64,000 nt of DNA, from positions 24,565 through 88,564 of the forward strand of contig CAVQVY010000038.1 of NCBI GenBank assembly GCA_963717185.1, in the 5' to 3' direction. The position numbers and the translations under genes were made by a program. Below, piece by piece: positions 1 through 46,384 of this stretch. The notes below the pieces were generated by a model, which saw only the letters and a program-made list of their open reading frames with translations, was not told the DNA's origin and ran no database searches. This DNA comes from Candidatus Dormiibacterota bacterium. Its GTDB lineage: Bacteria; Chloroflexota; Dormibacteria; Aeolococcales; Aeolococcaceae. How positions within the stretch are numbered: position 1 is the stretch's first letter; every line of letters begins with the position of its first letter.

Positions 1-1572
1 CGACGTGCGCGAGGCCACCGTCGGCCCGCTGTTGGGCACAACGCTGGTGTCGGGTGGTCCCATCTCCACGGCGTCGTAATCGATGCCCAGCGTCTCGGCG
101 GCAATCTGGCAAAGAATCGTGTTCGTCCCCTGGCCGAACTCTGTGCTCGACACCAGCACTCGCGGCCTGCCTTCCGCCGTTGTATCCATCGCCACCAGCG
201 AATTCAGATACTTCTCGCCCGATCCTGTGAAGCCCGATCCATGCAGGAATGCCGCGAGCCCAATTCCCTTCTTCTTCATCCCCGGTCCGGCGTTTTCGCG
301 CGCAAACCTCTCCCGCTTCGCTTCGTAGTCTGATTCAGCCATCGCGCGCCTCATCAGATGTTCCAGATCAATATCCTCTTCGATCTTCTGTCCCGTCGTG
401 GTTGTCTGCCCGGGCACCAGAAAATTCCTTCGCCTCAACTCGTCGGGTGCCATCCCCAGCGCCTCGGCAATGTGATCCATATGCCGCTCGATTGCGAACA
501 GGCTCTGCGGGGCGCCAAAGCCGCGGAACGCTCCATGAGGCGGATAATTCGTTGCGAACGCCTGCGAGCGTACCCGGATGCTGGGCCAAGAGTAAGGGCC
601 ACCAGCATGAATGGTCGCTCGCGACAGCACCGTCGACGACAGCGTTGAGTATGCGCCTCCATCCAGAGCGATCTCAATCTCCGCACCGAGCAGCTTGCCG
701 TCCCGCGCTACCGCTGTGCGATGCCGGATCCGCGACGGGTGCCGCTTCGTCGTTGCTGCCATATCCTCGGCGCGATCGTAAACAAGCTTTACCGGCTTTC
801 CCGATTTCATCGCCAGCAGCGCCGCATGCGCGCCGATCATCGACGGATAATCTTCTTTGCCACCAAACGCGCCGCCCGTCTCAACCTGCACGATCCGGAC
901 TTTGTCCTCCGGTAATCCCGTCATCTTCACCAGCGACTTGTGCACATAGAACGGGCACTGGAGCGATCCCCACACCGTCAGCCCATCCTCCGCCGAATAA
1001 ATGGCAATCGCACCATTGTTCTCGATATACAGGTGTTCCTGCGCGCCGGTGGTGTATTCGCCTTCCACGATTCGATCCGCCTGCGCCCAGACCGCGTCCA
1101 CGTCGCCCTTCTCCATAAGGAAGGACTTGAACAGGTTGTCCTCGCCCCAAATCACCGGATCGCGCCGTTGGCTCTCCTCAATCGAATGCACCGCAAACCA
1201 TTCCTCATAGTGGATCCGAACCGCCGCCACCGCTTTGGGAAGCAAATACCGATCCGGATGAGCCAGTAAGAGGATCGGTTCTTCAGGATGGTTCACAACC
1301 TCGGCCGCCAGGCACGGCCAGTCGTGATTGATCATCGCGATTTCGTTGGTTCCGGGAATATCCGTAGCCGTAACAATTACAAATTCATCCCAGGGAATTC
1401 CATCGCCAAACTCAATCTCCAGAATCCGCCCGCGCGCGATGCTGCTCCGCACGGTCGCCCCGTGCAGCATCCCCGGCATCGTCAGGTCATCGACATACTT
1501 CGCGCGGCCGCACACCTTCGCAACACCTTCCTTGCGCAACGCCGCTTTGCCGACGACCTTTTCTTGCCCCAA
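1..1572 (-). CDS. Xanthine dehydrogenase/aldehyde oxidase-family molybdopterin-binding subunit (partial; 3' end beyond window start; TTG start)
   Basis: My own minus-strand translation is open from TTG at 1572-1570 to the window edge. It reads QEKVVGKAALRKEGVAKVCGRAKYVDDLTMPGMLHGATVRS...AQEHLYIENNGAIA...VQVETGGAFGGKEDYP...GAFRGFGAPQSLFAIERHMD...STEFGQGTNT. These are typical CoxL/XdhB-type motifs. It is missing from the ORF track because no stop lies in the window. An in-frame TGA sits just upstream of the TTG. Confidence 0.8.
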   Translation of the reverse strand, partial: MGQEKVVGKAALRKEGVAKVCGRAKYVDDLTMPGMLHGATVRSSIARGRILEIEFGDGIPWDEFVIVTATDIPGTNEIAMINHDWPCLAAEVVNHPEEPILLLAHPDRYLLPKAVAAVRIHYEEWFAVHSIEESQRRDPVIWGEDNLFKSFLMEKGDVDAVWAQADRIVEGEYTTGAQEHLYIENNGAIAIYSAEDGLTVWGSLQCPFYVHKSLVKMTGLPEDKVRIVQVETGGAFGGKEDYPSMIGAHAALLAMKSGKPVKLVYDRAEDMAATTKRHPSRIRHRTAVARDGKLLGAEIEIALDGGAYSTLSSTVLSRATIHAGGPYSWPSIRVRSQAFATNYPPHGAFRGFGAPQSLFAIERHMDHIAEALGMAPDELRRRNFLVPGQTTTTGQKIEEDIDLEHLMRRAMAESDYEAKRERFARENAGPGMKKKGIGLAAFLHGSGFTGSGEKYLNSLVAMDTTAEGRPRVLVSSTEFGQGTNTILCQIAAETLGIDYDAVEMGPPDTSVVPNSGPTVASRTS

Positions 1573-1727
1573 TCGCGCTCCCTGTTGGACTCAAACCGAG
1601 TCCGGGAAAATTTCCTTATGTTACTACGGACTCCTGACTCCCCAAACAAGTAACTGCATTCCGCCCGTCACACCTTTACAAATGGAAGCCGCTCTGCGAC
1701 TCTGGTGAGCGGATTGGGGGCCTTCAC

Positions 1728-4271
1728 TTGCGCAATCAAACGTTTCACAGCGCGGCTGTGTTGCTCTTTTCTCTTTGCTGTCTTCCTGCGGTCCCTCTTC
1801 AGGCACAGGCTCCAGTTCCTGACAGCCCAGCCATCGACCAGCGCGTGGATTCGATGATCTCCAAGCTCACACTCGAGCAAAAACTCGAACTCATCGGTGG
1901 CGTCGACAGCATGTTCATCCGCGCCGAATCTTCTGCTGGCTTCCCCATGCTCAAAATGAGCGACGGTCCGGAGGGCGTGCGCACCTGGGGTCCGGACACC
2001 GCTTACGCCGGCGGCATCGCGCTCGCCGCTGCCTGGGATCCGAAGCTCGCGAATGCTATGGGCGAGTCCATCGGCAAAGACGCGCGCGCGCGTGGCGTGA
2101 ATTTCATCCTCGGCCCCGGCGTCAACATCTATCGTGCTCCCATGTGCGGCCGCAACTTCGAATACTTCGGTGAAGACCCCTACCTCGCGGGCCAGACCGC
2201 CGCTGCCTACATCCGCGGCGTCCAGAACGAAGGAGTCATCGCCACCGTCAAGCATTTCGCCGCCAACAATCAGGAGTACGACCGCCACAACGTGAGCTCC
2301 GATCTGGACGAACGCACTCTGCGCGAGATCTACCTCCCCGCCTTTGAGGCCGCTGTCCAGCAGGGTCACGTCGGCGCCGTGATGAACAGCTACAACCTGC
2401 TGAACGGAACGCACGCTACCGAAAACAAGCACCTCAATCTCGACATCCTGAAGGGGGACTGGAAATTCGATGGCGTCCTCATGTCCGACTGGGATGCGAC
2501 CTACTCCTCCGTCGGCGGCGCAAACAACGGGCTTGACCTCGAAATGCCTTCCGGCAAATTCATGAACCCCCGGAACCTGTTGTCAGCGGTCAAGAGCGGC
2601 CAGGTTTCTGAAGCCACCATCGACGAAAAGCTCCGCCGCATCTTCCGCACTGCCATCCGCTTCGGCTTCCTCGATCGAGACCAGACCGATCACTCCCTTC
2701 CGCGTTTCAGCCAGGAAGGCCGCAATGTTGCGCTCCAGGAATCTCTGGAGAGCATCACGCTGCTCAAGAACGATGGCAATCTGCTCCCGCTCGATCCGGG
2801 CACTGTTCATACCCTCGCCGTGATCGGCCCGGATGCCTGGCCGGCGGTGCCGGGCGCGGGCGGCAGCTCCCACACCGACGCCTATGCGCCGGTTAGCATC
2901 ATGACCGGTCTCGCTGATACGCTGGCCGCCAAGGTCAAGGTCCTCTACGTTGCTGGTCTGCCCAAAGCCACGGAACTCATGCAGCAAACGGAGTTTTACG
3001 ACCCTTCCGGCAAGACGCCGGATAACCCCTGGACCGGATCGCAGGTTAAAGTCGAGACCTTCGACAATCCAAATCTAGCCGGCACGCCGACGGTTTCCTA
3101 CTTTCGGAGAATCGCGTCGTATCGATCCGAAGAGTGGACTCCGCCAGCGCCTCAGCACCGCAGCATGCGCGCCACGATGAAATACATGCCGCCCAAGACG
3201 GAGGATTACCTTTTCCTCGTCGGCGCCGGCGGCTCCGATGCGTACAAACTGATGGTCGACGGCAAGCCCGTCCTCGATCAGCCTACGCGCGAAGGTCAGG
3301 CGCCGCGCTATATTGAGATCCCCCTCACAGCCGGCCAGCCTGCCTCGATCGAACTCGACTACTGGCCCGACGCGACGAGCCTGCGCATCGGCCTCGGCAT
3401 TCGCGGTGTCGAAGAACTCGTCGATCCGGAAGCGAAGAAGATCGCCTCCCTGGCCGACGCAGCCGTTGTCGTTGTTGGATTCGATCCTTCAACGGAGAGC
3501 GAAGGCTTTGACCGCAGCTTTCAGCTTCCCTTCGGTCAGGACGAGCTCATTCAGACTGTCTCCCAGGCGAACCCGCACACGATTGTCAGCATCACAGCAG
3601 GCGGCAACGTCGACATGCATCGCTGGCTGTCCGGCGTGCCCGCGCTCCTGCACAATTGGTATCCCGGACAAGAGGGCGGCCGTGCGCTCGCGCAGATCCT
3701 CACTGGCCAGCATTCTCCGGAAGGCCATTTGCCGGTCAGCTTCGAGCGCTCGTGGGACGAGAATCCCGTGCACGATAGCTATTACGCCGCACCCGTACCG
3801 AAAGGCCAGACTCCGCATGTCGCCTATAAGGAAGGTGTCTTTGTTGGCTATCGTTACTACACCACGTACGACAAGCAGCCGCTCTTTCCCTTCGGCTTTG
3901 GCCTTTCCTACACAACGTTCGCATTCTCGAACCTGAAGGTTTCGCCCGCATCCGCTACGTCCGATGGCTCGATCACCATCTCCTTCGACGTCACCAACGC
4001 CGGGCAGCGCGAAGGCGCTACCGTTGCTCAGGTCTACGTCGGTGATCCCACAGCGAAAGTCAAGCGCCCGTCAAAAGAATTGAAGGGATTCGAGAAGGTT
4101 CGCCTCGGTCCGGGCGACACCCATCACGTCAGCATCGCGCTGGATCATCGCTCACTCGCGTACTGGAGCCTTGAAAAGAACGACTGGCAGGTCGATCCTG
4201 GTAAATTCATCGTTTTCGTCGGCGATTCATCCGCTAACACGCCCTTGACCCAGGATTTCCAGGTTCAGTGA
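1728..4271 (+). CDS. Glycoside hydrolase family 3 beta-glucosidase, probably secreted
   Basis: 847-aa ORF with GH3 motifs SDGPEGVR, GRNFEYFGEDPYL, KHFAANNQE and MSDWDA. It has a hydrophobic N-terminal signal-like segment (LLFSLCCLPAVPLQAQA). Confidence 0.88.
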   Translation: MRNQTFHSAAVLLFSLCCLPAVPLQAQAPVPDSPAIDQRVDSMISKLTLEQKLELIGGVDSMFIRAESSAGFPMLKMSDGPEGVRTWGPDTAYAGGIALAAAWDPKLANAMGESIGKDARARGVNFILGPGVNIYRAPMCGRNFEYFGEDPYLAGQTAAAYIRGVQNEGVIATVKHFAANNQEYDRHNVSSDLDERTLREIYLPAFEAAVQQGHVGAVMNSYNLLNGTHATENKHLNLDILKGDWKFDGVLMSDWDATYSSVGGANNGLDLEMPSGKFMNPRNLLSAVKSGQVSEATIDEKLRRIFRTAIRFGFLDRDQTDHSLPRFSQEGRNVALQESLESITLLKNDGNLLPLDPGTVHTLAVIGPDAWPAVPGAGGSSHTDAYAPVSIMTGLADTLAAKVKVLYVAGLPKATELMQQTEFYDPSGKTPDNPWTGSQVKVETFDNPNLAGTPTVSYFRRIASYRSEEWTPPAPQHRSMRATMKYMPPKTEDYLFLVGAGGSDAYKLMVDGKPVLDQPTREGQAPRYIEIPLTAGQPASIELDYWPDATSLRIGLGIRGVEELVDPEAKKIASLADAAVVVVGFDPSTESEGFDRSFQLPFGQDELIQTVSQANPHTIVSITAGGNVDMHRWLSGVPALLHNWYPGQEGGRALAQILTGQHSPEGHLPVSFERSWDENPVHDSYYAAPVPKGQTPHVAYKEGVFVGYRYYTTYDKQPLFPFGFGLSYTTFAFSNLKVSPASATSDGSITISFDVTNAGQREGATVAQVYVGDPTAKVKRPSKELKGFEKVRLGPGDTHHVSIALDHRSLAYWSLEKNDWQVDPGKFIVFVGDSSANTPLTQDFQVQ

Positions 4272-35915: not shown

Positions 35916-36248
35916 CGCCGGGTTTACTTTCGCCTAACCAGAGCGCCTGGTTCGGGCGACGGTGGAAAATCAAAGCTTCGGCGTCGTTTAACTGCCAAAA
36001 AACCGTTCCTCGCTTCTTAGCACTTCGACAGCGCTCGCATTGTCATAACCGTTTCTTCTCCAACTAAGCCTCGACCGTCTTCCATTGTTTCTTCGAAAGA
36101 TCAACCCACTAATTCACCATGCAAGAGGTTCGTTCTTTTTTCAAGGGAGTGCCGAGGCTGCCACCCATCGTGTTTTCGCAACCCCGTCGACGAACAGAAT
36201 CGTTTTGATCTTTGTACAGATAACTCAGCTTCGCGAACGATTTTATTA

Positions 36249-36277
36249 TTGACATTCTCCCCGATGTTCACAATACT
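36249..36277 (+). promoter_or_regulatory. Sigma70-type promoter TTGACA-17 nt-AATACT with AT-rich upstream tract (unit P1)
   Basis: Read directly: TTGACA at 36249-36254 and AATACT at 36272-36277. TTTTATTA lies upstream. An ATG follows 7 nt after the -10 element. Confidence 0.5.
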
Positions 36278-36284
36278 GCAGGCC

Positions 36285-36365
36285 ATGTCTAGCTATTGCT
36301 TTTACGCCTGTAGGTGCTGCGTGGTTTGTTGTCACCAGCAGTGTCTTTTGCCAACGGCGAGCTAG
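36285..36365 (+). CDS. Candidate leaderless Cys-rich micro-ORF P1 (26 aa): MSSYCFYACRCCVVCCHQQCLLPTAS
   Basis: My own translation. It has 7 Cys codons in 26, including two tandem pairs. There is no room for a Shine-Dalgarno sequence. It is too short for the ORF track. Confidence 0.4.
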   Translation: MSSYCFYACRCCVVCCHQQCLLPTAS

Positions 36366-36368
36366 ACG

Positions 36369-36410
36369 ACCCTGACACCTTAGTTCGAGCAGTCAGGGTT
36401 CTTCCTTTGG
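36369..36410 (+). terminator. Hairpin ACCCTGAC-N15-GTCAGGGT followed by TCTTCCTTTGG (weak intrinsic terminator or attenuator)
   Basis: An 8-bp perfect stem starts 3 nt after the P1 stop. The T tract is interrupted, so terminator strength is uncertain. Confidence 0.3.
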
Positions 36411-36547
36411 TATCCTCCTAGTTCTTCGTTGGCTCCCAGTCATTTGCTTTGATCTGCTGCTTGATCTGCATATCAGCGCTTTGGCGTCGGGGCGAATTAT
36501 CTGCTGCCCGACTCAGAGCGAATCTCACCAGGAGAGTGTATTGAGCT

Positions 36548-37360
36548 ATGAGGACTCGTTTCGCTTTTCCTAGTTTAGCCAGCAATCGCCCATGGCAAGC
36601 CGGCAGCAGTGGCATGCGGGGCGTGCGAATGGCGGTCTTATTTTTGTGCTTGCCGGCAACGGTTCTGGGTCAGTCCAAGCCAGCTTCTCAGATTCCGCGT
36701 GCTGCCGATGGTCACCCCGATCTTTCCGGGTTCTGGCAGGTGATAAGCTCCGCGGACTGGAACATTCAGGATCATTCAGCCGAAAAGGGAGTTCCCGCTG
36801 GACAAGGGATTGTAATTGGCAACGAAATTCCCTACCAGTCCTGGGCCGCTGCGAGGAAGAAGGAAAACTATGAGCACCGCGATGCAATGGACCCAAAAGC
36901 AAAATCCTATGTCCCCGGCGTCCCACGGATCACATACACATCGTTTCCTTTCCAAATCGTTCAGACGCCAAACGAAGTGGCAATTCTCTACGAGTATGTC
37001 CACGCTGTTCGTCATCTCTACACTAGCAGGCCCCAACATCCGGCCGGGCACATTGACTTCTGGCTGGGCGATTCACGGGGACATTGGGAGGCTGACACAC
37101 TGGTTGTTGACGTCACGGATTTCAATGATTCTTCGTGGTTCGATCACGCGGGCAATTTCCACAGCGACGCGCTGCACGTCGTTGAACGTTATACCTTCAT
37201 TGATCGGGATCACATCGATTACCAGGCCGCGATTGAAGACCCTAAGGTCTTTACCAAGCCTTGGAAGATCGATGTTGTTCTCTACCGCCATGTGGAGAAA
37301 AACTTCCAGCTACTCGACTATGAAGGGTATGCCTTCGACTATGAAAAATATTATCCATAG
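36548..37360 (+). CDS. Secreted hypothetical protein, paralogue A (PDLSG.W / GDSRGHWE.DTLVVDV family)
   Basis: Signal-like MAVLFLCLPATVLGQS. The motifs GHPDLSGFWQ, IPYQSWAA, GDSRGHWEADTLVVDVT and FTKPWK are shared with the next gene. The start is uncertain (36548, 36614 or 36629). Confidence 0.7.
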   Translation: MRTRFAFPSLASNRPWQAGSSGMRGVRMAVLFLCLPATVLGQSKPASQIPRAADGHPDLSGFWQVISSADWNIQDHSAEKGVPAGQGIVIGNEIPYQSWAAARKKENYEHRDAMDPKAKSYVPGVPRITYTSFPFQIVQTPNEVAILYEYVHAVRHLYTSRPQHPAGHIDFWLGDSRGHWEADTLVVDVTDFNDSSWFDHAGNFHSDALHVVERYTFIDRDHIDYQAAIEDPKVFTKPWKIDVVLYRHVEKNFQLLDYEGYAFDYEKYYP

Positions 37361-37462
37361 CCGCAAATCTTCTTCGTCGAAAAACTGAGTCAACCTGACT
37401 GAACTAGCGGTCCTTCCGGCAACGGGATCGAGCCCACAGTTGCCGCTTGGAGAGAGGATGCC

Positions 37463-38368
37463 ATGAGCGTTCGATCGATTCGCATGACAGTCGTCGGTTC
37501 CCTAGTAGCGGCGGTATTGTCTTTTGCAGTGCCTGTTATTTTCTCCCAGGAGCAAACATCATCTGCCACAGCCGAAACCCGCACTCCCGATGGCCAGCCA
37601 GATATTCAGGGAATCTGGCGGGCCAACCCTGGCGGCGACACCTATGACCTCACGGGTAATAAGCCGCGTCCGGACGTTGGGCTACAAGGCAATGGAAGGC
37701 CTCGGCCGGCGACACACCGGATTGTCGATGGGACCTCCGAAGGCAATATCCCGTACCAGTCCTGGGCCGAAGAAAAACAGAGAGATACCGAAGAACACGC
37801 TGATGACCCCATTAAACCGGAATACGTAGACACGCAGGCGCATTGCCTGCTCGAAGGACCAGGCCGCGTCTTTATCCATTCCGGCTTTCAGATACTCCAA
37901 GCCCCGGGGTATGTCCTTTTCTTTTTTGAAGAAAATGACGAGTCTCGGATCGTTCCTCTCGACGGCCGGCCGCATGTGGGTGAAGATATAAAGCTGTGGC
38001 AAGGAGACTCGCGCGGTCATTGGGAAGGCGACACACTGGTGATCGATGTCACCAATGTAAAGGCGAAATCAAGACTGGACATGGTGGGCGATTTCTACAG
38101 CCCGTCGGCTCACTTTGTCGAGCGGCTGACGCGCGTTGATGACAAAACGATCAACTATGAAGCGACGGTCACCGATCCTACTGTCTATACAAAACCCTGG
38201 AAGCTTACGGCCCGATTCGTGCGCAGATTTCCGAACGGATCTGACTACGAGATGTTTGAAGACGCGTGCCATGAAGGTGAGCGGAGTGCAGATAATCTGG
38301 TGATTCCGGAAGGCATCGCGAAGGAGAATGCTGAGAAGGCCAAGTCTGCCTCCAGGAAGCAACCATAG
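37463..38368 (+). CDS. Secreted hypothetical protein, paralogue B of the same family
   Basis: A GGAGAGAGG RBS is present, and the signal reads VGSLVAAVLSFAVPVIFSQ. Motifs are GQPDIQGIWR, IPYQSWAE, GDSRGHWEGDTLVIDVT and YTKPWK. It retains two Cys (AHCLLEG, DACHEGE) that paralogue A lacks. Confidence 0.75.
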   Translation: MSVRSIRMTVVGSLVAAVLSFAVPVIFSQEQTSSATAETRTPDGQPDIQGIWRANPGGDTYDLTGNKPRPDVGLQGNGRPRPATHRIVDGTSEGNIPYQSWAEEKQRDTEEHADDPIKPEYVDTQAHCLLEGPGRVFIHSGFQILQAPGYVLFFFEENDESRIVPLDGRPHVGEDIKLWQGDSRGHWEGDTLVIDVTNVKAKSRLDMVGDFYSPSAHFVERLTRVDDKTINYEATVTDPTVYTKPWKLTARFVRRFPNGSDYEMFEDACHEGERSADNLVIPEGIAKENAEKAKSASRKQP

Positions 38369-38613: not shown

Positions 38614-39039
38614 TCAGTTTTTATCTGACGGCGAGTCGCTACCCGTGATCTCACCTGCAGAAGTTGCAAGAAGAAAGTCTCGCCCGTCGGGCAACCTGAT
38701 ACTCGCGCCGTTTGCAGTCGGTGTGCCATTCTTAGCCCGATAGCCCTTAACGGTGACTTCGACGCCGGTCGGAAAGTCGGTTTTCCTAACCCCTTTTCTC
38801 AAGAGTGCGCCTGGTCCGCCGGTCTCAATCGCCCAAGTAACGACTTGGCTCTGTTCATTTTTCACGTCGACATAAATCCACCCATGGGGATTCACAAAGT
38901 CAAATTTCTTTAGGGTTCCTTTCAAGGTGACTGGCTGATTGATGTCGAACTCTGAGGTGAAAGAATGATGTGCGAATGCCGGCAGTGCGGCCACCAGAAT
39001 GCTCACAACAACTGGTAAGCGAGACAGCTTTCGTTTCAT
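38614..39039 (-). CDS. DUF6152-like small secreted protein
   Basis: A TAAGGAG RBS precedes the ATG at 39039. The signal peptide ends in PAFA, followed by HHSFTSEFDINQPVTLKGTLKKFDFVNPHGWIYVDV. This is the pattern I recall for DUF6152. Confidence 0.7.
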   Translation of the reverse strand: MKRKLSRLPVVVSILVAALPAFAHHSFTSEFDINQPVTLKGTLKKFDFVNPHGWIYVDVKNEQSQVVTWAIETGGPGALLRKGVRKTDFPTGVEVTVKGYRAKNGTPTANGASIRLPDGRDFLLATSAGEITGSDSPSDKN

Positions 39040-39451
39040 GGAATGCTCCTTAACTTTCATGGCCATAAGTTCTCGACTCATTACTCGAATATCTGACTCC
39101 GGGAACGAAAAGACTGCGCTGCCTTCAAACCACTGCGGGTAGCGCCGAGGGACATCGAACTATCGGTTGATTACCTCCACCGGGGTGGCCGCGGATTCTG
39201 AGCGGGCGTTCGCGTCCGCTCCTCTCGGACCGCTGATGTGACCCAGTCGGCGAATCATGCCTACCTCACCTCAAGTTGAATCGCGCCCACGCAGAATCGC
39301 CGCTACATGCCTGCTCGAAAAGATAATCGACTGTGTGCCACCGGAGATGATTCGCGCGACGTCTCGTCGACTTTCGGCCGTCACCTGGTGCCCATCACCG
39401 TCGGCGAGCTTTCCGTATTGCTGGGCCCCCCGCGAGTAATCCCATTGGCCG

Positions 39452-42400
39452 CTAGAAAACGACACGCACCGCTAACTCGCCTTGCTGTAATGGAAGCGCA
39501 GCGGTGAACGTTCCGAACGTGCCACCGGCGGTCGCCGACCCCGTAGATGCATTGGCCTGCTGTGTGGTACCAACTCCGCCATAGTTATTTGTACCGAGTA
39601 CGTTGAAGAGCTGACCGATGACTTGCAGCTTGAATCTTTCGCCGAGATCGATGTCTTTGCTGACGCGTGCGTCCAGCTGGTTGTAACGGTTGCTCTCAAT
39701 TTGTGACCGCGGGATCGGAGCCAGGCCTTTTGTAGCCCGCCACGCGTTGACGATTGCCAAAGTCTGGCCGATGTCGCGGGAGTTCTTACCCGTTCCCGGC
39801 ACGTAGTCGGTAATCGCTCCATCGTTGTTGAGGTCACCTCCAGCAAGCGCGCTGAAGGGCAATGAACTTCGCAAAGTCCAAATTGCCCCGACCGTGATCC
39901 GGTAACGCAGCAGCACCGAGCCGCTAACCACCAGGTTGTGACGACGGTCGGTGACAGCAAGTCCGTCATCTAACGAGGGATGGTAGAAGTCGGTGATGGC
40001 AGTGGTGCTGTTGTAGTTGTCAGTTTGTTTGGCCAGGGTGTACGAAACGACGTACTGGTAGCGTTTCGAGAAGCGTTTATCGAGACGAACGAAAAGTCCG
40101 CTGTAGTTGTAGTTTCCTATGGGCGCCGATTCATTGATTTGGCCGTAGGCCGGTAGAGGTCGTAGGCCGGTAAGCGGATTGGGCGTGTTGACGTTTTCGC
40201 TTACGACCAAGCCCTTCATATGCGTGAACAGGCCTTCTACGCTGAGTGCAAAGTCGGACTTGAACTGCCGCGCCACGCCGAGGTTGTAGGTAAAAACCTG
40301 TGGGTTATAAACGTTGTTAGCGTTGGTGCTGGTGTTGAGGGCTGATTGCGGATGAGCGGCGAGATATTGTTGGTAGGTTAGTCCATTATATGGATCTGGC
40401 CACGGGATAGGATTAGCGGTGGTACCTGTGATTGTGATCTGGGTTTGGCGGAGTGTTGTGATTTCGCCTTCGAATGCATTGTCTTGAAGATTTACATTAA
40501 CAATCCCAAATCCGCCCCGCACCACGGTGCGGCCGTCCTTCAAAGGGTCCCAAGCGAAGCCCATCCGCGGTGCAAGGTTATCGTAATCTCCGTGCCCCCC
40601 GAACTTAACGTAGGGCAGAGGCACTGGGTACAGCGACGCGCTCAGGTGATTCCGCCATACACCTGTTTGCAAATCGTAGCGGACGCCGAGATTGAGGGTC
40701 AGATTGGGCCGAACCTTCCACTCATCCTCGAAATAGAATCCCTGCATCAAGTTTTCGTCTTGCCAGTTGAGTTGTGGGAAGTTCGTGGTGAATTTAATTG
40801 GGGTGGCGCTGGCCACAGTCGTCCAGTTGAAGTTCGGATTTTGAGGATCAAAGGTTGGACTCGCCGCCGTTGGCTGGTAATCCTTCGCGAACGTCCATAC
40901 GCCTAGGGGAGTCGCCGGAGCATCGAGCTTTCTCGGAGTTCTCAGTTCATCCACACCGAATCTGAAGGTGTGCTGGGAGGCGGTCCTCGTCACATCGTCA
41001 CGGACCTCCTGATAGAACGGGTGAAACTCGGTGCTTTGATAGAATCCCCAAGTCAGATCCGGGAAATTGATCTGAATGCTGCCGTTGGCATATTGTGCGG
41101 GCGTGTTGAAATGGGGAGCCGTGCTGAGCTGCCAGGATTGAGCGACCTGCGCGGCGAACTGATTTACAGTCTTATCCGAAATCAACCAGCTATCGACCAG
41201 GGCGTATGTCCAGGACCTGACGCTTGAATCTCCGCTGCCGCTGAAAGCCGCAGCGTCTCCCCCATTGGCATTCTGAGCGTAGTTGGTGGCTGGGTTCTGT
41301 TCGGAAAATCGGAGAAAAGCACTGTTTTTGGGGCTGAATTGATAGTCGAGCCTTCCGAAATATTCTCGGAACAGAGCTCCGCCCCGGAAGCTGCCTTCGA
41401 GCGGCGCAAAGGCCGCAGTCACAGCGGGGCTTTTGCCGCCTCCCGGGGACACCGTGAAGTATTCCTGGTCATTTAGCTCTTCAAACGAAAACAGGAAATA
41501 AAGCCTGTCGTTCTGGATCGGGCCACCGATTTCGACACCATATTGGTTACGGCTGAAGGGTTGGATAGGGAATGCGGTTGGGTTGGAGTTATACTGCGCT
41601 TGAGTAATCGTATCCACTCGGTTGATGTAGTGGTCGCGGAAGTACTCGAAGGCCTCCCCATGTAGCTGGTTCGTACCGCCTTTCGAGGCCACCGTAACAA
41701 CGCCGGCCGCCCTTCCGCCATACTCAGCAGGGGCCTGGCCAAGAATCACCTTAAATTCCTGGACCACGGCCTCTTGCACCAGGTCGCGCGGGTCGCCATT
41801 CCCCGAGATAACGTTGCTCAGGCCATCCAGCAAATAGTTACTTCCAGCTGCATTGACTGCGCCAGCGCCAATGCTCGCCAGGGGTCTTGATACTCGTCCG
41901 ACATCGGGCGTTGTGCCTGGCTCCAAGAGGGCGAGCATCGCGACCTGGCGCTGCGTAATTGGTAAGGAATCGATCTGCTGCCGCTCCACCACCTCAGATG
42001 CCACCTCGCTGCTAGCGATCTCTACGACCGGGGCCTCGGATCGAACGGTAACCGTCTGTTCCACGCTACTAAGCTTGAGCGTGAGGTTCTGCGGAACCTC
42101 AAGGCCGATTGTGAGAACAAGGTCCTGTATCTCAACGGCTGCAAAGCCTTGTCGTTCGGCCTTCAAGTCGTAAGTGCCGGGAGGCAGCGGAGCCACGCGA
42201 TACTTTCCATCGTCTCCAGTTAGGCTTGTTCGCGTGAGCCCTGTTTCCGGATTTCTTACCGTCACGGTCACTCCTGGTTCTAGGGCGCCTTGCGCGTCGG
42301 TGATAGTTCCCAAGATGACAGCATCGGTCGACTGCGCCCCGGCCGAAACCACGCGCATAAAAATCCACACCGCTAGCACCGCAAATTGAAAGGCCGAATC

Positions 42401-42508
42401 CTCCAACAAGACGCGCCCGCGCCATGCCGCTTGCTTATAGAAACCGTCAGGCCGGTGCTGATTGAACTTTCCGAGGGTAAGTAGCTGGAAACTCTTGACT
42501 GCTGACAT
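39452..42508 (-). CDS. CarboxypepD_reg/TonB-dependent receptor (1018 aa from ATG 42508), Cys-free
   Basis: An AGGAGA RBS lies 8 nt before the ATG at 42508. The track start at 42679 lies inside an intrinsic terminator, so I reject it. GTITDAQGALEPGVTVTVRNPETGLTRTSLTGDDGKYRVAPLPPGTYDL is followed by plug and barrel. The C-terminus ends in ELAVRVVF. I found no Cys in the whole ORF. Confidence 0.85.
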   Translation of the reverse strand: MSAVKSFQLLTLGKFNQHRPDGFYKQAAWRGRVLLEDSAFQFAVLAVWIFMRVVSAGAQSTDAVILGTITDAQGALEPGVTVTVRNPETGLTRTSLTGDDGKYRVAPLPPGTYDLKAERQGFAAVEIQDLVLTIGLEVPQNLTLKLSSVEQTVTVRSEAPVVEIASSEVASEVVERQQIDSLPITQRQVAMLALLEPGTTPDVGRVSRPLASIGAGAVNAAGSNYLLDGLSNVISGNGDPRDLVQEAVVQEFKVILGQAPAEYGGRAAGVVTVASKGGTNQLHGEAFEYFRDHYINRVDTITQAQYNSNPTAFPIQPFSRNQYGVEIGGPIQNDRLYFLFSFEELNDQEYFTVSPGGGKSPAVTAAFAPLEGSFRGGALFREYFGRLDYQFSPKNSAFLRFSEQNPATNYAQNANGGDAAAFSGSGDSSVRSWTYALVDSWLISDKTVNQFAAQVAQSWQLSTAPHFNTPAQYANGSIQINFPDLTWGFYQSTEFHPFYQEVRDDVTRTASQHTFRFGVDELRTPRKLDAPATPLGVWTFAKDYQPTAASPTFDPQNPNFNWTTVASATPIKFTTNFPQLNWQDENLMQGFYFEDEWKVRPNLTLNLGVRYDLQTGVWRNHLSASLYPVPLPYVKFGGHGDYDNLAPRMGFAWDPLKDGRTVVRGGFGIVNVNLQDNAFEGEITTLRQTQITITGTTANPIPWPDPYNGLTYQQYLAAHPQSALNTSTNANNVYNPQVFTYNLGVARQFKSDFALSVEGLFTHMKGLVVSENVNTPNPLTGLRPLPAYGQINESAPIGNYNYSGLFVRLDKRFSKRYQYVVSYTLAKQTDNYNSTTAITDFYHPSLDDGLAVTDRRHNLVVSGSVLLRYRITVGAIWTLRSSLPFSALAGGDLNNDGAITDYVPGTGKNSRDIGQTLAIVNAWRATKGLAPIPRSQIESNRYNQLDARVSKDIDLGERFKLQVIGQLFNVLGTNNYGGVGTTQQANASTGSATAGGTFGTFTAALPLQQGELAVRVVF

Positions 42509-42663
42509 GAACTGATCTCCTGGCTTGAGCTGATCGGTTACCTCCAGGAGACTGGTGGGATGGCCGGAGTCGATTTTGCCTCCCCGGTCGGGGTCGGCTA
42601 GGGTGATGTCTCTGCGCTTTGTCGCCCGGCGGGTAGATAGCTCTGTGGGATTCTTGCGTCGGA

Positions 42664-42701
42664 AAAACAAAAAACCCACCTGCCGAGTGTTTGGCGGTGG
42701 G
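42664..42701 (-). terminator. Rho-independent terminator (CCCACCGCC-N8-GGCAGGTGGG then TTTTTTGTTTTT) downstream of micro-ORF P2 and upstream of the TonB receptor
   Basis: Read directly on the minus strand. The stem is 6+3 bp with one bulge, followed by an 11/12 T run. Confidence 0.7.
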
Positions 42702-42731: not shown

Positions 42732-42818
42732 TTAAATTCTGCCCGCCTCAGAGAAGCCACACGCGCCGCATGTACAGCGGTTACAGGCTAGCGCGCGTCT
42801 CCGTGCGGCAAAAATCAT
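42732..42818 (-). CDS. Candidate leaderless Cys-rich micro-ORF P2 (28 aa): MIFAARRRALACNRCTCGACGFSEAGRI
   Basis: My own translation. It has 4 Cys in the pattern C-x2-C-x-C-x2-C. The ATG lies 7 nt after the -10 hexamer. The stop is 30 nt before the terminator stem. Confidence 0.45.
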   Translation of the reverse strand: MIFAARRRALACNRCTCGACGFSEAGRI

Positions 42819-42825
42819 GGAAGAG

Positions 42826-42854
42826 TTTATAGATGGACCGCGGTTGATTGTCAA
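42826..42854 (-). promoter_or_regulatory. Near-consensus sigma70 promoter TTGACA-17 nt-TATAAA (unit P2)
   Basis: Minus strand: TTGACA at 42854-42849 and TATAAA at 42831-42826. An A-rich tract (AATTTGAAAAAGG) lies upstream. Confidence 0.6.
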
Positions 42855-43026: not shown

Positions 43027-43055
43027 TTGACTCGGAGATGGTCGTCTTGTATGGT
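43027..43055 (+). promoter_or_regulatory. Sigma70-type promoter TTGACT-17 nt-TATGGT (unit P3), divergent from P2
   Basis: Read directly. An A-rich tract lies upstream (GAGACAAACTGAGACAAAACC). An ATG follows 8 nt after the -10 element. Confidence 0.55.
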
Positions 43056-43063
43056 CGAATTCC

Positions 43064-43168
43064 ATGCGAGTCGGACTCCAAAGGATTTTACCGGGTGAGC
43101 AGTGTTGTCGCATCCCCTCGTGCGCACCGTGTTCCCTGGTTGTGGGGAGGCTAGTCCGAACGTTCTAA
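43064..43168 (+). CDS. Candidate leaderless Cys-rich micro-ORF P3 (34 aa): MRVGLQRILPGEQCCRIPSCAPCSLVVGRLVRTF (or a non-coding leader/sRNA)
   Basis: My own translation. It has 4 Cys including a tandem TGT TGT. The stop is 30 nt before the terminator stem, the same spacing as in P2. Confidence 0.4.
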   Translation: MRVGLQRILPGEQCCRIPSCAPCSLVVGRLVRTF

Positions 43169-43198
43169 GAACTTTCTTCTAGTCCAAAGGTCTCTTAG

Positions 43199-43239
43199 CC
43201 CACCGCCATAGGTTCATTGGCCGGTGGGTTTTTTCTTTT
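43199..43239 (+). terminator. Rho-independent terminator (CCCACCG-C-CCA loop TGG-C-CGGTGGG then TTTTTTCTTTT) between micro-ORF P3 and yezD
   Basis: Read directly. The 5' arm CCCACCGCC is identical to that of the P2 terminator. Confidence 0.75.
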
Positions 43240-43270
43240 ATGGCCTTGTTTTGTTTCCTTGAGGATTGGG

Positions 43271-43507
43271 ATGACGACGACCAAGTTGAATCCGAAAGTG
43301 GAGGAGCAAACAGCGCGGAACGACAAACTTCCGCCAGACGCAATTGAGTCTTTGCTCCAGAGTGACCAAGGACTTCTGTGGGAAGTGGTTCGGGCACTCA
43401 AAACGATTCAGTATGGCTCAATCGTGTTGACAATTCACAATGGCCAACTGGTCGAGGTTAGTAAAAACATCAGAATTCGCAGAAGTGAACCGAACAATGG
43501 GAAATAA
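43271..43507 (+). CDS. YezD/DUF2292-family small protein
   Basis: A GAGGA RBS precedes the ATG at 43271. ALKTIQYGSIVLTIHNGQLVEVSKNIRIR matches the YGSV.I.I.DG.VVQIE..EK.R signature of DUF2292. Confidence 0.7.
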   Translation: MTTTKLNPKVEEQTARNDKLPPDAIESLLQSDQGLLWEVVRALKTIQYGSIVLTIHNGQLVEVSKNIRIRRSEPNNGK

Positions 43508-43712
43508 TTCCATAGGGTGCTTTACCGTAGGTGGCGGATCTCTAGCAAAAACGGATTGCTTGACAGTACTTTATTCGCGCTCCGCCTTTCCATTTGTGAT
43601 CCCTTCTACTCGGTCGTGTTGTTGTCCCCCACAGCAATAGTGCTGGAGAGCGGGACGCGGGCGTGAGCAGACGACTGTAGCCGCAGGTTCTTCGAAATGT
43701 AACTTCCGCGAA

Positions 43713-43750
43713 GGCCCGTTTCCAGCATCTGGGAGCGGGCCTTTTGTTTT
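43713..43750 (+). terminator. Rho-independent terminator (GGCCCG...CGGGCC then TTTTGTTTT) between yezD and the first membrane paralogue
   Basis: Read directly. The extended imperfect stem is GGCCCGTTTCCAG/CTGGGAGCGGGCC. It lies 38 nt before the ATG at 43789. Confidence 0.65.
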
Positions 43751-43788
43751 GAGTCCATACCTACAGACTTTGGATTTCGGGCGGAACA

Positions 43789-44280
43789 ATGAACCTCATG
43801 CACTTGTGCCAATGGCTTAGCGAGACACCATTCGGAACTTCCATCCGGGAATCGCCATTTGCTTTTCCTTTCATCGAATCCGTTCATGTTCTGGGAATAA
43901 CCCTCTTGGTAGGCACCGTCGCGGTTGTAGATCTGCGTCTTCTAGGTGTGGTGATGAAAGACGAGCAGGTGTCAGAGATCGTGAGCCGAGTGTTGCCACT
44001 AACTTGGTGCGGGTTTCTCATTCAGGTTGTCAGCGGCTTGCTTCTGTTCTGGGCCAAGGCGGACGAATATTACCTTAATCCTGTGTTCCGTCTTAAATTG
44101 CTGCTGCTCCTGCTGGCTGGCCTCAACCCGCTAATCTTTCATTCCACTCTGTATCGAAGCGTTTCGGAGTGGAACGACAAGCAGACGACACCCGTTCTTG
44201 CAAAGGTCGCAGGGCTTTTCTCTTTGACGCTCTGGAGCGGCGTCATTGTCGTGGGAAGGGCCATTGCTTATTTCAAATAG
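43789..44280 (+). CDS. Small 4-TM membrane protein, paralogue 1 (possibly DUF6644)
   Basis: 163 aa. The motifs ...W(L)..TP.G..IR.S...(F)P.IE.VH.L...L.G....VDLRL.G and GRAI(A/G)(Y/F) are shared with the next gene. Confidence 0.65.
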   Translation: MNLMHLCQWLSETPFGTSIRESPFAFPFIESVHVLGITLLVGTVAVVDLRLLGVVMKDEQVSEIVSRVLPLTWCGFLIQVVSGLLLFWAKADEYYLNPVFRLKLLLLLLAGLNPLIFHSTLYRSVSEWNDKQTTPVLAKVAGLFSLTLWSGVIVVGRAIAYFK

Positions 44281-44793: not shown

Positions 44794-44854
44794 GAGCAAG
44801 TGGTAACCGATGTGAATCCTTTGAACTGCTGATCGATGAAGGGAGTTGCAACCT

Positions 44855-46035
44855 ATGGGAATGAGATTTTATTTTCGGTGGGCGACGATTCTTCTTACCT
44901 TGCTGGGCCTCTCAGGTTCGGTTCCTGCGCAGTCGGTGGCGGGTCTTTGGGAGGGCCATGTAAACATCGACGGATTGAGTATTCCATTTCAGCTCGAGAT
45001 TTCAGGGAACGGATCTGCCGTGAAAGGCGCATTCCTTAATGGAGACGAGAAAGTCACCTCCACTGGCGGCCGCTTTGAAAACGGTGCTGTGATTCTAGAT
45101 TTTGACGAGTACGCCGAAACCCTGCAAGCGACTCTGGAAAACGGCCAATTGACAGGCATGATCGAGGGTCGATTTGGCCCGGGGTCGCGCAAAGCGCTAC
45201 CGTTTGAGGCGAAACCTTTTGTTCACGCTCCGGAATCGGTGTCGAAAACGATCCCCTCGATTGACGGTATCTGGGAGATTGAGAACCACAGCCCCAAAGG
45301 CGAATCGGCATGGCGCTTCATTGTCCGCCAGGCCGGTGGCGATGTTTCTGCGGCAATTTTGCGGGTAGATGGCGACACGGGTACTCTGACCGGCCACTAC
45401 CACGACGGCAAATTCGCGCTGAGCCATTTCTCGGGCGAGCGCCCCTACTTGGTCGACGTAACTCCGCAAAGCGAAGGAACGATCCTGCTGACGCTTAGCG
45501 ATCGTTCCGGTAAGAAAGATCTGACCGCCTACCGCCCCGCCGCAGCGCGAGCCAAAGGACTGCCTGAACCAACCGACCCAAACCAGCACACGAAGGTTAA
45601 AGATCAAGCTCAGCCCTTCGAGTTCAAGTTTCGCGATGTCGACGGACACGTGGTTTCCAATACGGATTCCCGTTTCCGTGGAAAGGTGGTGCTGGTCAAC
45701 GTCACAGGTAGTTGGTGCCCCAATTGCCACGACGAAGCTCCATTTCTCGCGGGGCTTTATCGCAAATACCGCAATGCAGGACTGGAAATCGTGGCGCTCG
45801 ATTTTGAAGAGCCCGAGCAGCTTGAGGATCTGACGAGATTGCGGGCTTTCGTCGCGCACTATGGAATCGAATACACCGTGCTAGTGGGCGGAACCCCTGA
45901 GCAGGTCAACCAAAAGATTCCGCAACTGGCGAATCTGAACGCCTGGCCCACGACCGTCCTGGTGGGGCGGGATGGGCTCGTCAAAGGAGTTCACGTCGGA
46001 TTCGCTAGTGCCGCCAGCGGTGAGTTTAACAAAGT
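44855..46035 (+). CDS. TlpA-like thiol:disulfide oxidoreductase with large N-terminal domain; 3' end cut off at the compositional junction
   Basis: A signal-like N-terminus is followed by GKVVLVNVTGSWCPNCHDEAPFLAGLYRKYRNAGLEIVALDFEE...AWPTTVLVGRDGLV, a thioredoxin fold with CxxC. After ...ASGEFN (about 46035) the same reading frame runs into unrelated high-GC sequence. Confidence 0.7.
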
Positions 46036-46129
46036 ACGACGAAGCAGCCCGCACCCTGCCCCAACCGGAGACGCAGACCCAGGAGCGTCCGCCGTCGATC
46101 GCGGTCACGACGAACCAGCGGACGCCGGC

Positions 46130-46384
46130 GATGATCCCTTCCGGGTCACCCGGCTCATTGCCAAGCAGGGCACGGTGGGCTTCGCTTGGCGCGTGTACAG
46201 CCTCGGGCGACGCTTCGCCCACCGCGAGGTCACCATCGTGGCCGAGGACGACGTGGTGCGCTTCTATCTCGGCGATGTCCTGGTCCGAACCCACCCACGC
46301 GGCGAGCACGGAAGCTACGTCAAAGCGACCATACGAACGGAGGTGATCCGCCGAAAAACCCTGCCTCGAACAGCTGTCAATTGA
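46130..46384 (+). mobile_element. Transposase/integrase (rve-type) C-terminal fragment
   Basis: FRVTRLIAKQGTVGFAWRVYSLGRRFAHREVTIVAEDDVVRFYLGDVLVRTHPR resembles the beta-barrel C-terminal domain of IS481/IS21/IS3-type DDE transposases. No catalytic core is present. Confidence 0.45.

Follow-up and report, generated by a model that had tools for sequence, protein, structure and literature searches.

A conserved, putatively leaderless Cys-rich open reading frame as a candidate cysteine sensor upstream of two secreted paralogues

Classical attenuators, such as those of trp, his, leu, pheA and ilv, are Shine-Dalgarno-led leaders that control biosynthetic operons for the amino acid they sense, and leader open reading frames (ORFs) of the tnaC and mgtL type gate Rho-dependent termination, sensing tryptophan via the nascent peptide, or proline and Mg2+. 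For cysteine, mycobacteria have leaderless polycysteine short ORFs (Ms5788A among them) that act as cysteine-responsive attenuators (Canestrari et al. 2020, 10.1101/834739). In the case of Ms5788A, the Cys tract pairs with the Shine-Dalgarno region, control is translational, and intrinsic terminators were shown not to be used (10.1101/834739). Among the Actinobacteria, Cys leaders without a conserved terminator hairpin carry pyrimidine tracts, and Rho-dependent termination has been proposed for them (Seliverstov et al. 2005, PMC1262725), while the uORFC-8-2 motif, found upstream of cysS in Rhodobacterales, contains a predicted ORF with tandem Cys codons in a stem and is predicted to act by ribosome-mediated attenuation (Brewer et al. 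2021, PMC8632094). Experimental proof of cysteine sensing by a leader ORF is confined to mycobacteria, and no report of cysteine leader ORFs in Acidobacteriota was found in the literature searched. Here we describe P1, a 26-codon, Cys-rich and putatively leaderless ORF upstream of two genes for secreted paralogues (gene 1 and gene 2) in a 64,000-nucleotide (nt) stretch of contig CAVQVY010000038.1 (assembly GCA_963717185.1), hereafter the window. The evidence presented below indicates that P1 is probably a cis-acting, ribosome-mediated, cysteine-sensing leader ORF that controls the secreted pair.

The P1 leader ORF and its conservation

An earlier note on this DNA had described a promoter, a Cys-rich ORF, a hairpin and a downstream gene starting at 36548, and each of these elements was read where it had been placed (Table 1). 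The ORF has Cys at codons 5, 9, 11, 12, 15, 16 and 20 (codon starts 36297, 36309, 36315, 36318, 36327, 36330 and 36342), including two tandem pairs. Because a consensus -10 element sits 6-7 nt before the ATG, the A of this ATG is placed at or next to the expected transcription start, and in all nine leaders of this type (the one in the window and the eight orthologues introduced below) consensus -35 and -10 elements lie 6-7 nt 5' of the ATG, which leaves too little room for a Shine-Dalgarno sequence. Approximately 13% of genes are predicted to be leaderless in three genomes of Acidobacteria (PMC3160421), making leaderless initiation plausible in this phylum. An untranslated spacer of 183 nt separates the ORF from gene 1, and the whole leader is 263 nt long.

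The proposal that the Cys content of P1 far exceeds chance was borne out by several comparisons. P1 is the only ATG ORF of 10-60 codons with seven Cys in the window. The promoter-to-ATG pattern set out in the earlier note has two matches in the window versus 0.13 expected, and each match leads into a short Cys-rich ORF. When the window was shuffled 200 times with dinucleotides preserved, the strict promoter followed by an ORF of 8-45 codons with at least four Cys was expected 0.005 times per shuffle versus two observed, and with a relaxed -10 element the corresponding values were 0.04 and three, so that equally Cys-rich ORFs do not arise at a similar rate in shuffled sequence. Across 1.3 Mb of related loci, the strict promoter pattern precedes 27 distinct short ORFs, 23 of which have three or more Cys, compared to 5.2% of 27,646 background short ORFs, with the caveat that these 27 belong to a handful of phylogenetically non-independent families and a nominal p-value overstates their independence.

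The ORF is also conserved in relatives. From loci fetched around relatives of the 270-amino-acid (aa) gene 1 protein, with Terriglobia metagenomes as the source, eight further distinct P1 leaders were gathered, bringing the number to nine with the window, eight of which have 26 codons. TTGAC[AT] occurs at the same distance in all nine, with TTGAC invariant in the four for which the promoter was aligned; the -10 element of the orthologues is GATA[CGT]T or CATAGT, following a 17-nt spacer and preceding the ATG by 6-7 nt. All eight 26-codon leaders retain Cys16 and Cys20, seven of them have Cys9, and their stop codon keeps its position; the longer leader of locus L175 has Cys at the columns aligned with Cys16 and Cys20. 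The Cys count ranges from three to seven in the orthologous leaders and is seven in the window.

The distribution of changes within codons differs along the ORF. In the eight 26-codon leaders, 16, 15 and 14 of the 18 sites in codons 2-19 are variable at codon positions 1, 2 and 3, respectively, and given this lack of third-position bias, the P1 peptide itself does not appear to be under selection. Codons 20-27, by comparison, are almost invariant at all three positions, implying that the 3' end of the ORF is constrained at the RNA level. This pattern of codon variation fits a sensor rather than a functional peptide. Moreover, the Acidobacteriaceae orthologues of gene 1 are preceded by an unrelated ORF (M..CCPNSH....GRCCE...) behind the same type of promoter, and in another lineage a Cys-rich ORF, MLQNFRCESGSVNTTACRRSCCVPAANVCC, stands before the gene 1 orthologue with the same promoter geometry.

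While surveying Cys-rich ORFs in the related loci, we also made several observations on their wider distribution. The motif (S/Y)ATPCR(E/T/K)(Q/M/L)C is common to leaders of different operons (L087, 2141-2221; L088, 4494-4405, reverse strand; L014, 953-864, reverse strand; L010, 1111-998, reverse strand), and such a common internal motif suggests that sensor modules may have spread between operons by duplication. The ORF of locus L012, which begins MSKCGGGQGCC, has its own Shine-Dalgarno-like GGAGAG, and its membership of the class is uncertain. A candidate third class of ORF, MRCC(G/A)xxC (L025, 3623-3721; L037, 7-69; L143, 4816-4914), was rejected, as it lies out of frame inside the 3' end of the upstream DUF6152 gene and represents a false positive of naive scans for Cys ORFs. 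In these three Bryobacterales loci the DUF6152 gene is followed directly by the secreted pair.

RNA structure of the P1 leader

Consensus folding with RNAalifold, on 7 and then 10 leader rows, revealed a long-range helix (helix A) in which the last six codons of the ORF pair with a box approximately 65 nt downstream. Helix A consists of two parts: in A1, GCCRACGG (36350-36357) pairs with CCGYYGGC (36426-36433), and in A2, GCTAG, which includes the stop codon, pairs with CTAG(C) (36418-36421). The box core, CCG[TC][TC]GGC, is found in all ten aligned rows; in the window its first base is T, giving a G:U pair. In helix A, 96.4% of cells are paired, and in L175 an A:U and a G:U pair have each become G:C. 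The 5' strand of the helix starts two codons past the last Cys in every one of the nine leaders; in L175 the stop codon lies ten codons further on, yet the spacing of helix A from the last Cys is kept.

Nested inside helix A as an inner stem is hairpin B, the hairpin described in the earlier note, whose position is conserved and in whose core four of five pairs have changed on both sides (e.g., C:G in three sequences versus U:A in five). For the whole conserved structure, 91.7% of cells are paired, compared to 31-50% when the partners are slid, and six pairs show changes on both sides, whereas the slid controls have 0-3 such pairs and shuffled sequences average 1.6, with none of 500 shuffles reaching six; the structure was derived from the same sequences on which it was tested, which somewhat inflates these contrasts. 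A further hairpin, H0, lies inside the ORF, its 3' arm holding the Cys16 and Cys20 codons, and is weakest in the window's own sequence. In addition, ORF codons 5-7 may pair with a conserved GAYGGC approximately 45 nt upstream of the Shine-Dalgarno sequence (candidate helix L), where 88% of cells are paired and support is weak.

The earlier note had taken hairpin B for a terminator, much weaker than those of the neighboring P2 and P3 units. This reading is probably wrong, and we rejected hairpin B as a terminator, since it lacks a U-tract, was not called by the terminator scan and is nested in the larger conserved helix. No U-tract follows either hairpin B or helix A in the P1 leader. The spacer does contain a pyrimidine-rich, G-poor tract that is a candidate Rho-loading region (Table 1). 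The best 78-nt stretch has a C/G ratio of 1.57 in the window and 1.75-2.7 in the orthologues, at a similar place in eight of the nine leaders (L177 excepted), values that rank in the top 0.2-7% for 78-nt stretches across the window. Part of this C-rich, G-poor sequence is paired in helix A. When the 5' strand of helix A was omitted, RNAalifold returned only -2.4 kcal/mol, and no competing partner for the free box was identified.

A different arrangement was found in the "CCPNSH" leaders (L009, L010, L011, L014, L089 and L091), for which RNAalifold pairs GUUGUCC at the tandem Cys codons with GGACGAC at the Shine-Dalgarno sequence, with no changes on both sides of the pairs.

Sister units, proposed mechanism and rival explanations

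P1 heads one of four operons in the window that each have their own copy of a Cys-rich ORF as first cistron (P1-P4), and homologues of these ORFs precede the secreted pair, DUF2292, DUF6644 and receptor genes in relatives. P2 precedes a DUF2292 gene (43271-43507), and P3, in which three Cys codons are consecutive, precedes a DUF6644 gene (43789-44280). The fourth unit, P4, encodes MIFAARRRALACNRCTCGACGFSEAGRI, with four Cys, upstream of an operon comprising genes for a TonB-dependent receptor (39452-42679) and a DUF6152 protein (38614-39081); it escaped the NANNNT pattern because its -10 element ends in A. ORFs homologous to that of P3 (MRFSSAYVCCCPHS... and others) stand before DUF6644 genes in relatives, and Cys-rich ORFs before orthologous receptor genes in L008, L088, L089, L091 and L178.

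To determine the regulatory logic of P2 and P3, each nascent RNA was folded up to the 5' half of its terminator. For P2, an antiterminator formed with the ribosome held at Cys14/15 and none formed with the ribosome at the stop codon. For P3, the strand that follows the stop codon (43642-43656), which acts as antiterminator, pairs with the 5' half of the terminator unless a ribosome is on the stop codon. These folds imply classical attenuation logic, with read-through when the ribosome stalls at the Cys codons. The P3 promoter (43561-43598) has a good -35 element, TTGACA, but the window has GCCTTT where relatives have TACATT or TACCTT, a degenerate -10 element, and P3 may be weakly expressed or may use another start.

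The claim that P1 repeats the design of P2 and P3 stands for the input part, a Cys-rich short ORF directly behind a consensus promoter, but not for the output part, since P2 and P3 have canonical terminators and antiterminators whereas P1 has a helix that pairs the 3' end and stop codon of the ORF with a downstream box. The accompanying idea of a single regulon was strengthened, given that the operons are neighbors, that their synteny is shared in relatives and that a fourth unit was found, and a common cysteine-responsive regulon is the natural reading of P1-P4 at the sequence level. Gene order in relatives links the units further. In L003 and L168-L170, DUF2292 lies directly upstream of the secreted pair in one operon, and in L168 the order is a P2-type ORF and terminator, DUF2292, the pair, a cupin gene and a rhodanese gene. 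The pair is thus expected to be induced by cysteine limitation in these loci, being located behind DUF2292, with a P2-type leader in L168.

We propose the following mechanism for P1. Transcription from the consensus promoter would start at or within one base of the ATG, and a 70S ribosome would load on the putatively leaderless ORF without a Shine-Dalgarno sequence. The speed of this ribosome across four to seven Cys codons, where it would be expected to stall, would report the supply of charged tRNA-Cys. Both strands of H0 lie within the ORF, which also contributes a strand to helix A and perhaps another to helix L, and the position of the ribosome would select which of these helices form while the 183-nt spacer is made; the choice of helix would then set the expression of the two secreted paralogues. 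We infer that P1 expression rises when cysteine is scarce, a direction carried over from the P2-type leaders by orthology. As to the output, our preferred guess is that helix A gates Rho-dependent termination or polarity within the pyrimidine-rich spacer, with occlusion of the ribosome-binding site as the alternative, and our confidence in any one output mechanism at P1 is low.

Two models of helix A can be envisaged. In one, based on ribosome flux, helix A would be kept open under cysteine-replete conditions, with the C-rich box exposed to Rho or to the Shine-Dalgarno region, while under starvation ribosomes would be held at the upstream Cys codons, helix A would close and the box would be hidden. 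In the other, helix A would be a negative element, and a ribosome stalled at the last Cys would mask its 5' strand.

Several results weigh against a cysteine-sensing leader of this kind, or against particular parts of it. The 5' strand of helix A would be covered whether the ribosome stood at Cys20 or at the stop codon; since simple occupancy does not separate the starved from the replete state, timing or ribosome flux must be invoked. The terminator scan called no intrinsic terminator in 36366-36547, and the window's own spacer has a modest C/G bias (1.57, top 7%). Constrained folding of six leaders, with a ribosome masked at a middle Cys, the last Cys or the stop codon, showed no consistent change in the accessibility of the Shine-Dalgarno sequence or AUG. 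Sliding duplex energies against the Shine-Dalgarno sequence favored the box and the Cys20 region only weakly (approximately 2 standard deviations), the best duplexes between ORF and Shine-Dalgarno sequence fell at differing places among the leaders, and shuffle z-scores for Shine-Dalgarno pairing were close to 0 in P1-type and class-2 leaders, in a test without power. More distantly related orthologues, from Bryobacterales and Vicinamibacterales, yielded no such ORF; the scan of 77 genome loci, with long ORFs masked, was insensitive (4 of 77 found, with L091 missed), and absence is not claimed. Finally, the regulation is read from sequence, so that the start site, translation of the ORF and the response to cysteine are putative, as is a role for the regulated genes in sulfur metabolism.

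Four other explanations were weighed. The same sensor could work with the opposite polarity, so that translation to the stop codon would melt hairpin B and helix A and expression would be on when cysteine is plentiful, with products that would remove surplus cysteine or sulfur. A ribosome terminating at the stop codon would block hairpin B, which starts 4 nt further on, in the manner of pyrBI-type coupling, and the cysteine-dioxygenase-like cupin and rhodanese that follow the pair in relatives could serve cysteine catabolism. However, hairpin B has no U-tract and is not a credible terminator, the CDO_I matches of the cupins are flagged as weak, and in L168 these genes stand behind a P2-type leader with a canonical terminator, while P2 of the window folds into the on state at low Cys. 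The SsuA-type transporter, the SrpI-like encapsulin and the sulfur-poor receptor described below point instead to scavenging, and we regard opposite polarity as unlikely. It is quite unlikely that P1 encodes a functional Cys-rich micropeptide (for example, one that binds metal or is redox-active, or a precursor that is then modified) expressed together with the secreted proteins. The 26-codon length in eight of nine leaders and the conservation of several Cys and of a C-terminal C-P-L-P-T-A-S would be in keeping with a micropeptide, but the C-terminus is conserved at synonymous sites as well and pairs with the box with covariation, indicating constraint on the RNA, and codons 2-19 have no third-position bias. 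The orthologous genes of sister lineages, moreover, carry unrelated peptides that are alike only in being Cys-rich, four different operons each have a Cys-rich ORF of their own, and no maturation enzyme or exporter is adjacent in the window or in the gene neighborhoods of relatives.

The length of the leader (263 nt) and its conserved long-range structure with covariation would also be expected of a ligand- or protein-binding structured 5' leader or riboswitch, in which the ORF would be incidental and untranslated. We consider this very unlikely, given that the reading frame, with its ATG at the expected start, its stop position and its in-frame Cys, has been preserved amid diverging sequence, and that the same Cys-rich ORF signature occurs in leaders of quite different structure. 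Nor does Rfam offer a family: the entire window has no hit at the gathering threshold, and 36200-36600 has none even at E <= 5. As for a chance ORF behind a chance promoter match, short ORFs are abundant at 61% G+C and 5.2% of them have at least three Cys, but the shuffle expectation of 0.005 against two observed, together with conservation of the ORF in nine distinct leaders, effectively refutes this explanation. We retain the cysteine-sensing leader ORF as the probable reading of P1.

Regulated genes and comparison with known systems

The protein encoded by gene 1 belongs to a large family, with at least 7,999 homologues at E <= 0.001 among 8,000 candidates scored, and the closest named homologues among those scored are from Candidatus Acidiferrales (an order of Terriglobia, Acidobacteriota). 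Genes 1 and 2 are adjacent in most relatives with gene tables read. A profile search of solved structures with the gene 1 protein found nothing below E = 0.24; its AlphaFold model is a beta-barrel (pLDDT 75, pTM 0.72), with weak Foldseek matches to the FABP/lipocalin fold (best E 3e-3, TM-scores 0.31/0.55).

The neighborhoods of the pair in relatives contain genes for a CDO_I-like cupin (cysteine-dioxygenase-like, a weak match), a rhodanese and AhpC/TSA-redoxin proteins. Also present are a convergent ABC transporter of the SsuA/NMT1 type and, in divergent orientation, one or two DUF6644 genes that have a Cys-rich ORF of their own. In L175, a gene for an SrpI-like encapsulin shell and a long Aminotran_5 gene (1-2425, reverse strand) are divergent from the P1-type leader and secreted-protein gene; the Aminotran_5 gene probably encodes a cysteine desulfurase, and these neighbors are another putative link to sulfur metabolism. 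The sulfur amino acid content of several products in the window is also low (Table 1), and the sulfur-poor products of the putative regulon fit, as circumstantial evidence, a response to sulfur limitation.

Other features of the window genes deserve mention. The longest ORF of the receptor gene starts approximately 100 codons before an apparent signal peptide (…VWIFMRVVSAGAQS; 42350-42679, reverse strand); its true start is probably further downstream, in which case the leader behind the P4 ORF would be longer than 52 nt. The gene at 44846-46384 encodes a 512-aa protein with an odd domain pairing, in which an AhpC/TSA-redoxin-thioredoxin-like domain spans residues 251-388 and the C-terminal part (residues 429-486) matches Mu-transposase C-terminal domain 2 (E 4e-7); at the position of this gene relatives have AhpC/TSA-redoxin proteins, one with DsbD_N. 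The literature searched held nothing useful on the function of DUF2292.

Table 1. Positions of the P1 unit, its sister units and related features in the window, with the orthologous leader ORFs
Feature	Position	Strand	Details
-35 hexamer TTGACA	36249..36254	+	direct reading; scan match 10/12 to consensus
-10 hexamer AATACT	36272..36277	+	17-nt spacer from -35; 7 nt to ATG
P1 leader ORF, MSSYCFYACRCCVVCCHQQCLLPTAS + TAG	36285..36365	+	26 codons; ATG 36285; stop 36363-36365; putatively leaderless
Hairpin H0, inside the ORF	36313..36345	+	RNAalifold columns 29-32:58-61 and 36-41:47-52; 87.5% and 90% of cells paired
Helix A 5' strand	36350..36365	+	GCCAACGG (A1, codons 22-25) + GCTAG (A2, with stop codon); RNAalifold
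Hairpin B	36369..36399	+	ACCCTGAC 36369-36376, 15-nt loop, GTCAGGGT 36392-36399; 8-bp stem, 3 nt after stop
Pyrimidine-rich, G-poor tract, candidate Rho-loading region	36400..36480	+	C/G composition
Helix A 3' strand (box)	36418..36437	+	CTAG...TCGTTGGC, then TCCC; RNAalifold
Shine-Dalgarno AGGAGAG and gene 1 ATG (36548)	36530..36550	+	direct reading; AGGAG kept in most orthologues
Regulated gene 1	36548..37360	+	270-aa secreted protein without Pfam family
Regulated gene 2	37463..38368	+	301-aa paralogue of gene 1 (33% identity)
Secreted pair	36548..38368	+	Cys + Met 1.85% and 1.99%
TonB-dependent receptor	39452..42679	-	0 Cys, 6 Met in 1,075 aa (Cys + Met 0.56%)
P4 unit	42732..42854	-	TTGACA 42854-42849; 17-nt spacer; TATAAA 42831-42826; 7 nt; ATG 42818
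P2 unit	43027..43240	+	promoter 43027-43055; ORF 43064-43168 (MRVGLQRILPGEQCCRIPSCAPCSLVVGRLVRTF); intrinsic terminator ~43200-43240
P3 unit	43561..43754	+	TTGACA 43561; GTG ORF 43596-43640 ((M)IPSTRSCCCPPQQ); terminator 43710-43744 + T-tract
Thioredoxin-like protein	44846..46384	+	Cys + Met 0.98%
Seven other window genes			Cys + Met 1.7-5.5% (six: 2.5-5.5%)
Leader ORF, locus L002			MFNRCCRRCRQCTACCSGHCPLPTAR
Leader ORF, locus L176			MLNRCCRTCRHCSACCSGQCPLPTAR
Leader ORF, locus L081			MLALRRHGCRSCAMPCREQCPLPTAS
Leader ORF, locus L180			MLMLCRRGCRSCAIPCREQCPLPTAS
Leader ORF, locus L087			MFMLRCRRCRHSATPCREMCPMPTAS
Leader ORF, locus L171			MLTLRCRTCRRSAISCREQCPLPTAS
Leader ORF, locus L177			MFTHRLRKSDSRATCCREYCPLPTAS
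Leader ORF, locus L175			MHFTSSACRCLATSCRESCLVPVVRSEELASFSL; 34 codons

Based on the data presented above, it is possible, and we put it forward tentatively, that Terriglobia have a cysteine-starvation "ribulon" built from duplicated leaderless poly-Cys ORFs with at least two kinds of output, a terminator/antiterminator (DUF2292, DUF6644) and a terminator-less helix (the secreted pair) that possibly gates Rho. Such a ribulon would suggest a sulfur-scavenging role for the large family of secreted beta-barrels, for DUF2292, DUF6644 and DUF6152, and for the sulfur-poor TonB-dependent receptor, and its signature would give all of these proteins a testable context, namely induction when cysteine is scarce. 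It would also mean that cysteine sensing by leader ORFs is widespread and has probably arisen more than once, rather than being an actinobacterial peculiarity. Acidobacteriota are numerous in soils, have received little study and for the most part have not been cultured; a signature legible from the sequence alone could serve to define their response to sulfur limitation in metagenomes. P1 would be a compact case in which one type of sensor is wired to an output device unlike that of its neighbors P2 and P3.

With respect to known systems, P1 shares with the classical attenuators a short ORF rich in the codon of the sensed amino acid and a ribosome whose position would select among pairings, and P2 and P3 fit the terminator/antiterminator scheme, whereas P1 has no terminator. 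The leaders described by Seliverstov et al. resemble P1 in combining a Cys ORF, the lack of a terminator and a pyrimidine-rich tract before the gene, but they are located upstream of cys and cbs genes, have their Cys runs near the stop codon and have no conserved RNA structure reported (PMC1262725). P1 and uORFC-8-2 are both predicted upstream ORFs with conserved Cys codons in a stem; uORFC-8-2, however, has an intrinsic terminator, controls cysteinyl-tRNA synthetase, is alphaproteobacterial and is not described as leaderless. As in tnaC and mgtL, the P1 ORF is followed by a long untranslated spacer without an intrinsic terminator, and the action of Rho at P1 is hypothetical, being suggested by composition.

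The closest likeness is to the polycysteine ORFs of mycobacteria. As in that system, P1 is a putatively leaderless first cistron with several Cys codons, some of them consecutive, several operons have an ORF of their own, as in the mycobacterial ribosome-directed regulon or "ribulon", the RNA of the ORF forms one strand of a regulatory helix, and the non-Cys positions are partly constrained at the nucleotide level. The "CCPNSH" leaders come close to the layout of Ms5788A, with a consensus fold that pairs tandem Cys codons with the Shine-Dalgarno region. In contrast with Ms5788A, the paired strand of P1 comes after the last Cys codon, its partner box lies 100 nt upstream of the Shine-Dalgarno sequence, and no sequestration of the latter was found, while P2 and P3 depart from the mycobacterial case in carrying intrinsic terminators. 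The P1 family, furthermore, occurs in Acidobacteriota (Terriglobia) rather than Actinomycetota, has no sequence similarity to the mycobacterial ORFs, and has as its targets uncharacterized secreted, membrane and receptor proteins rather than annotated cysteine-metabolism loci. P1 is thus new as to its phylum, its sequence, which is unrelated to known cases, its target genes, which have no known function, and an output part unlike that of the mycobacterial and classical systems.

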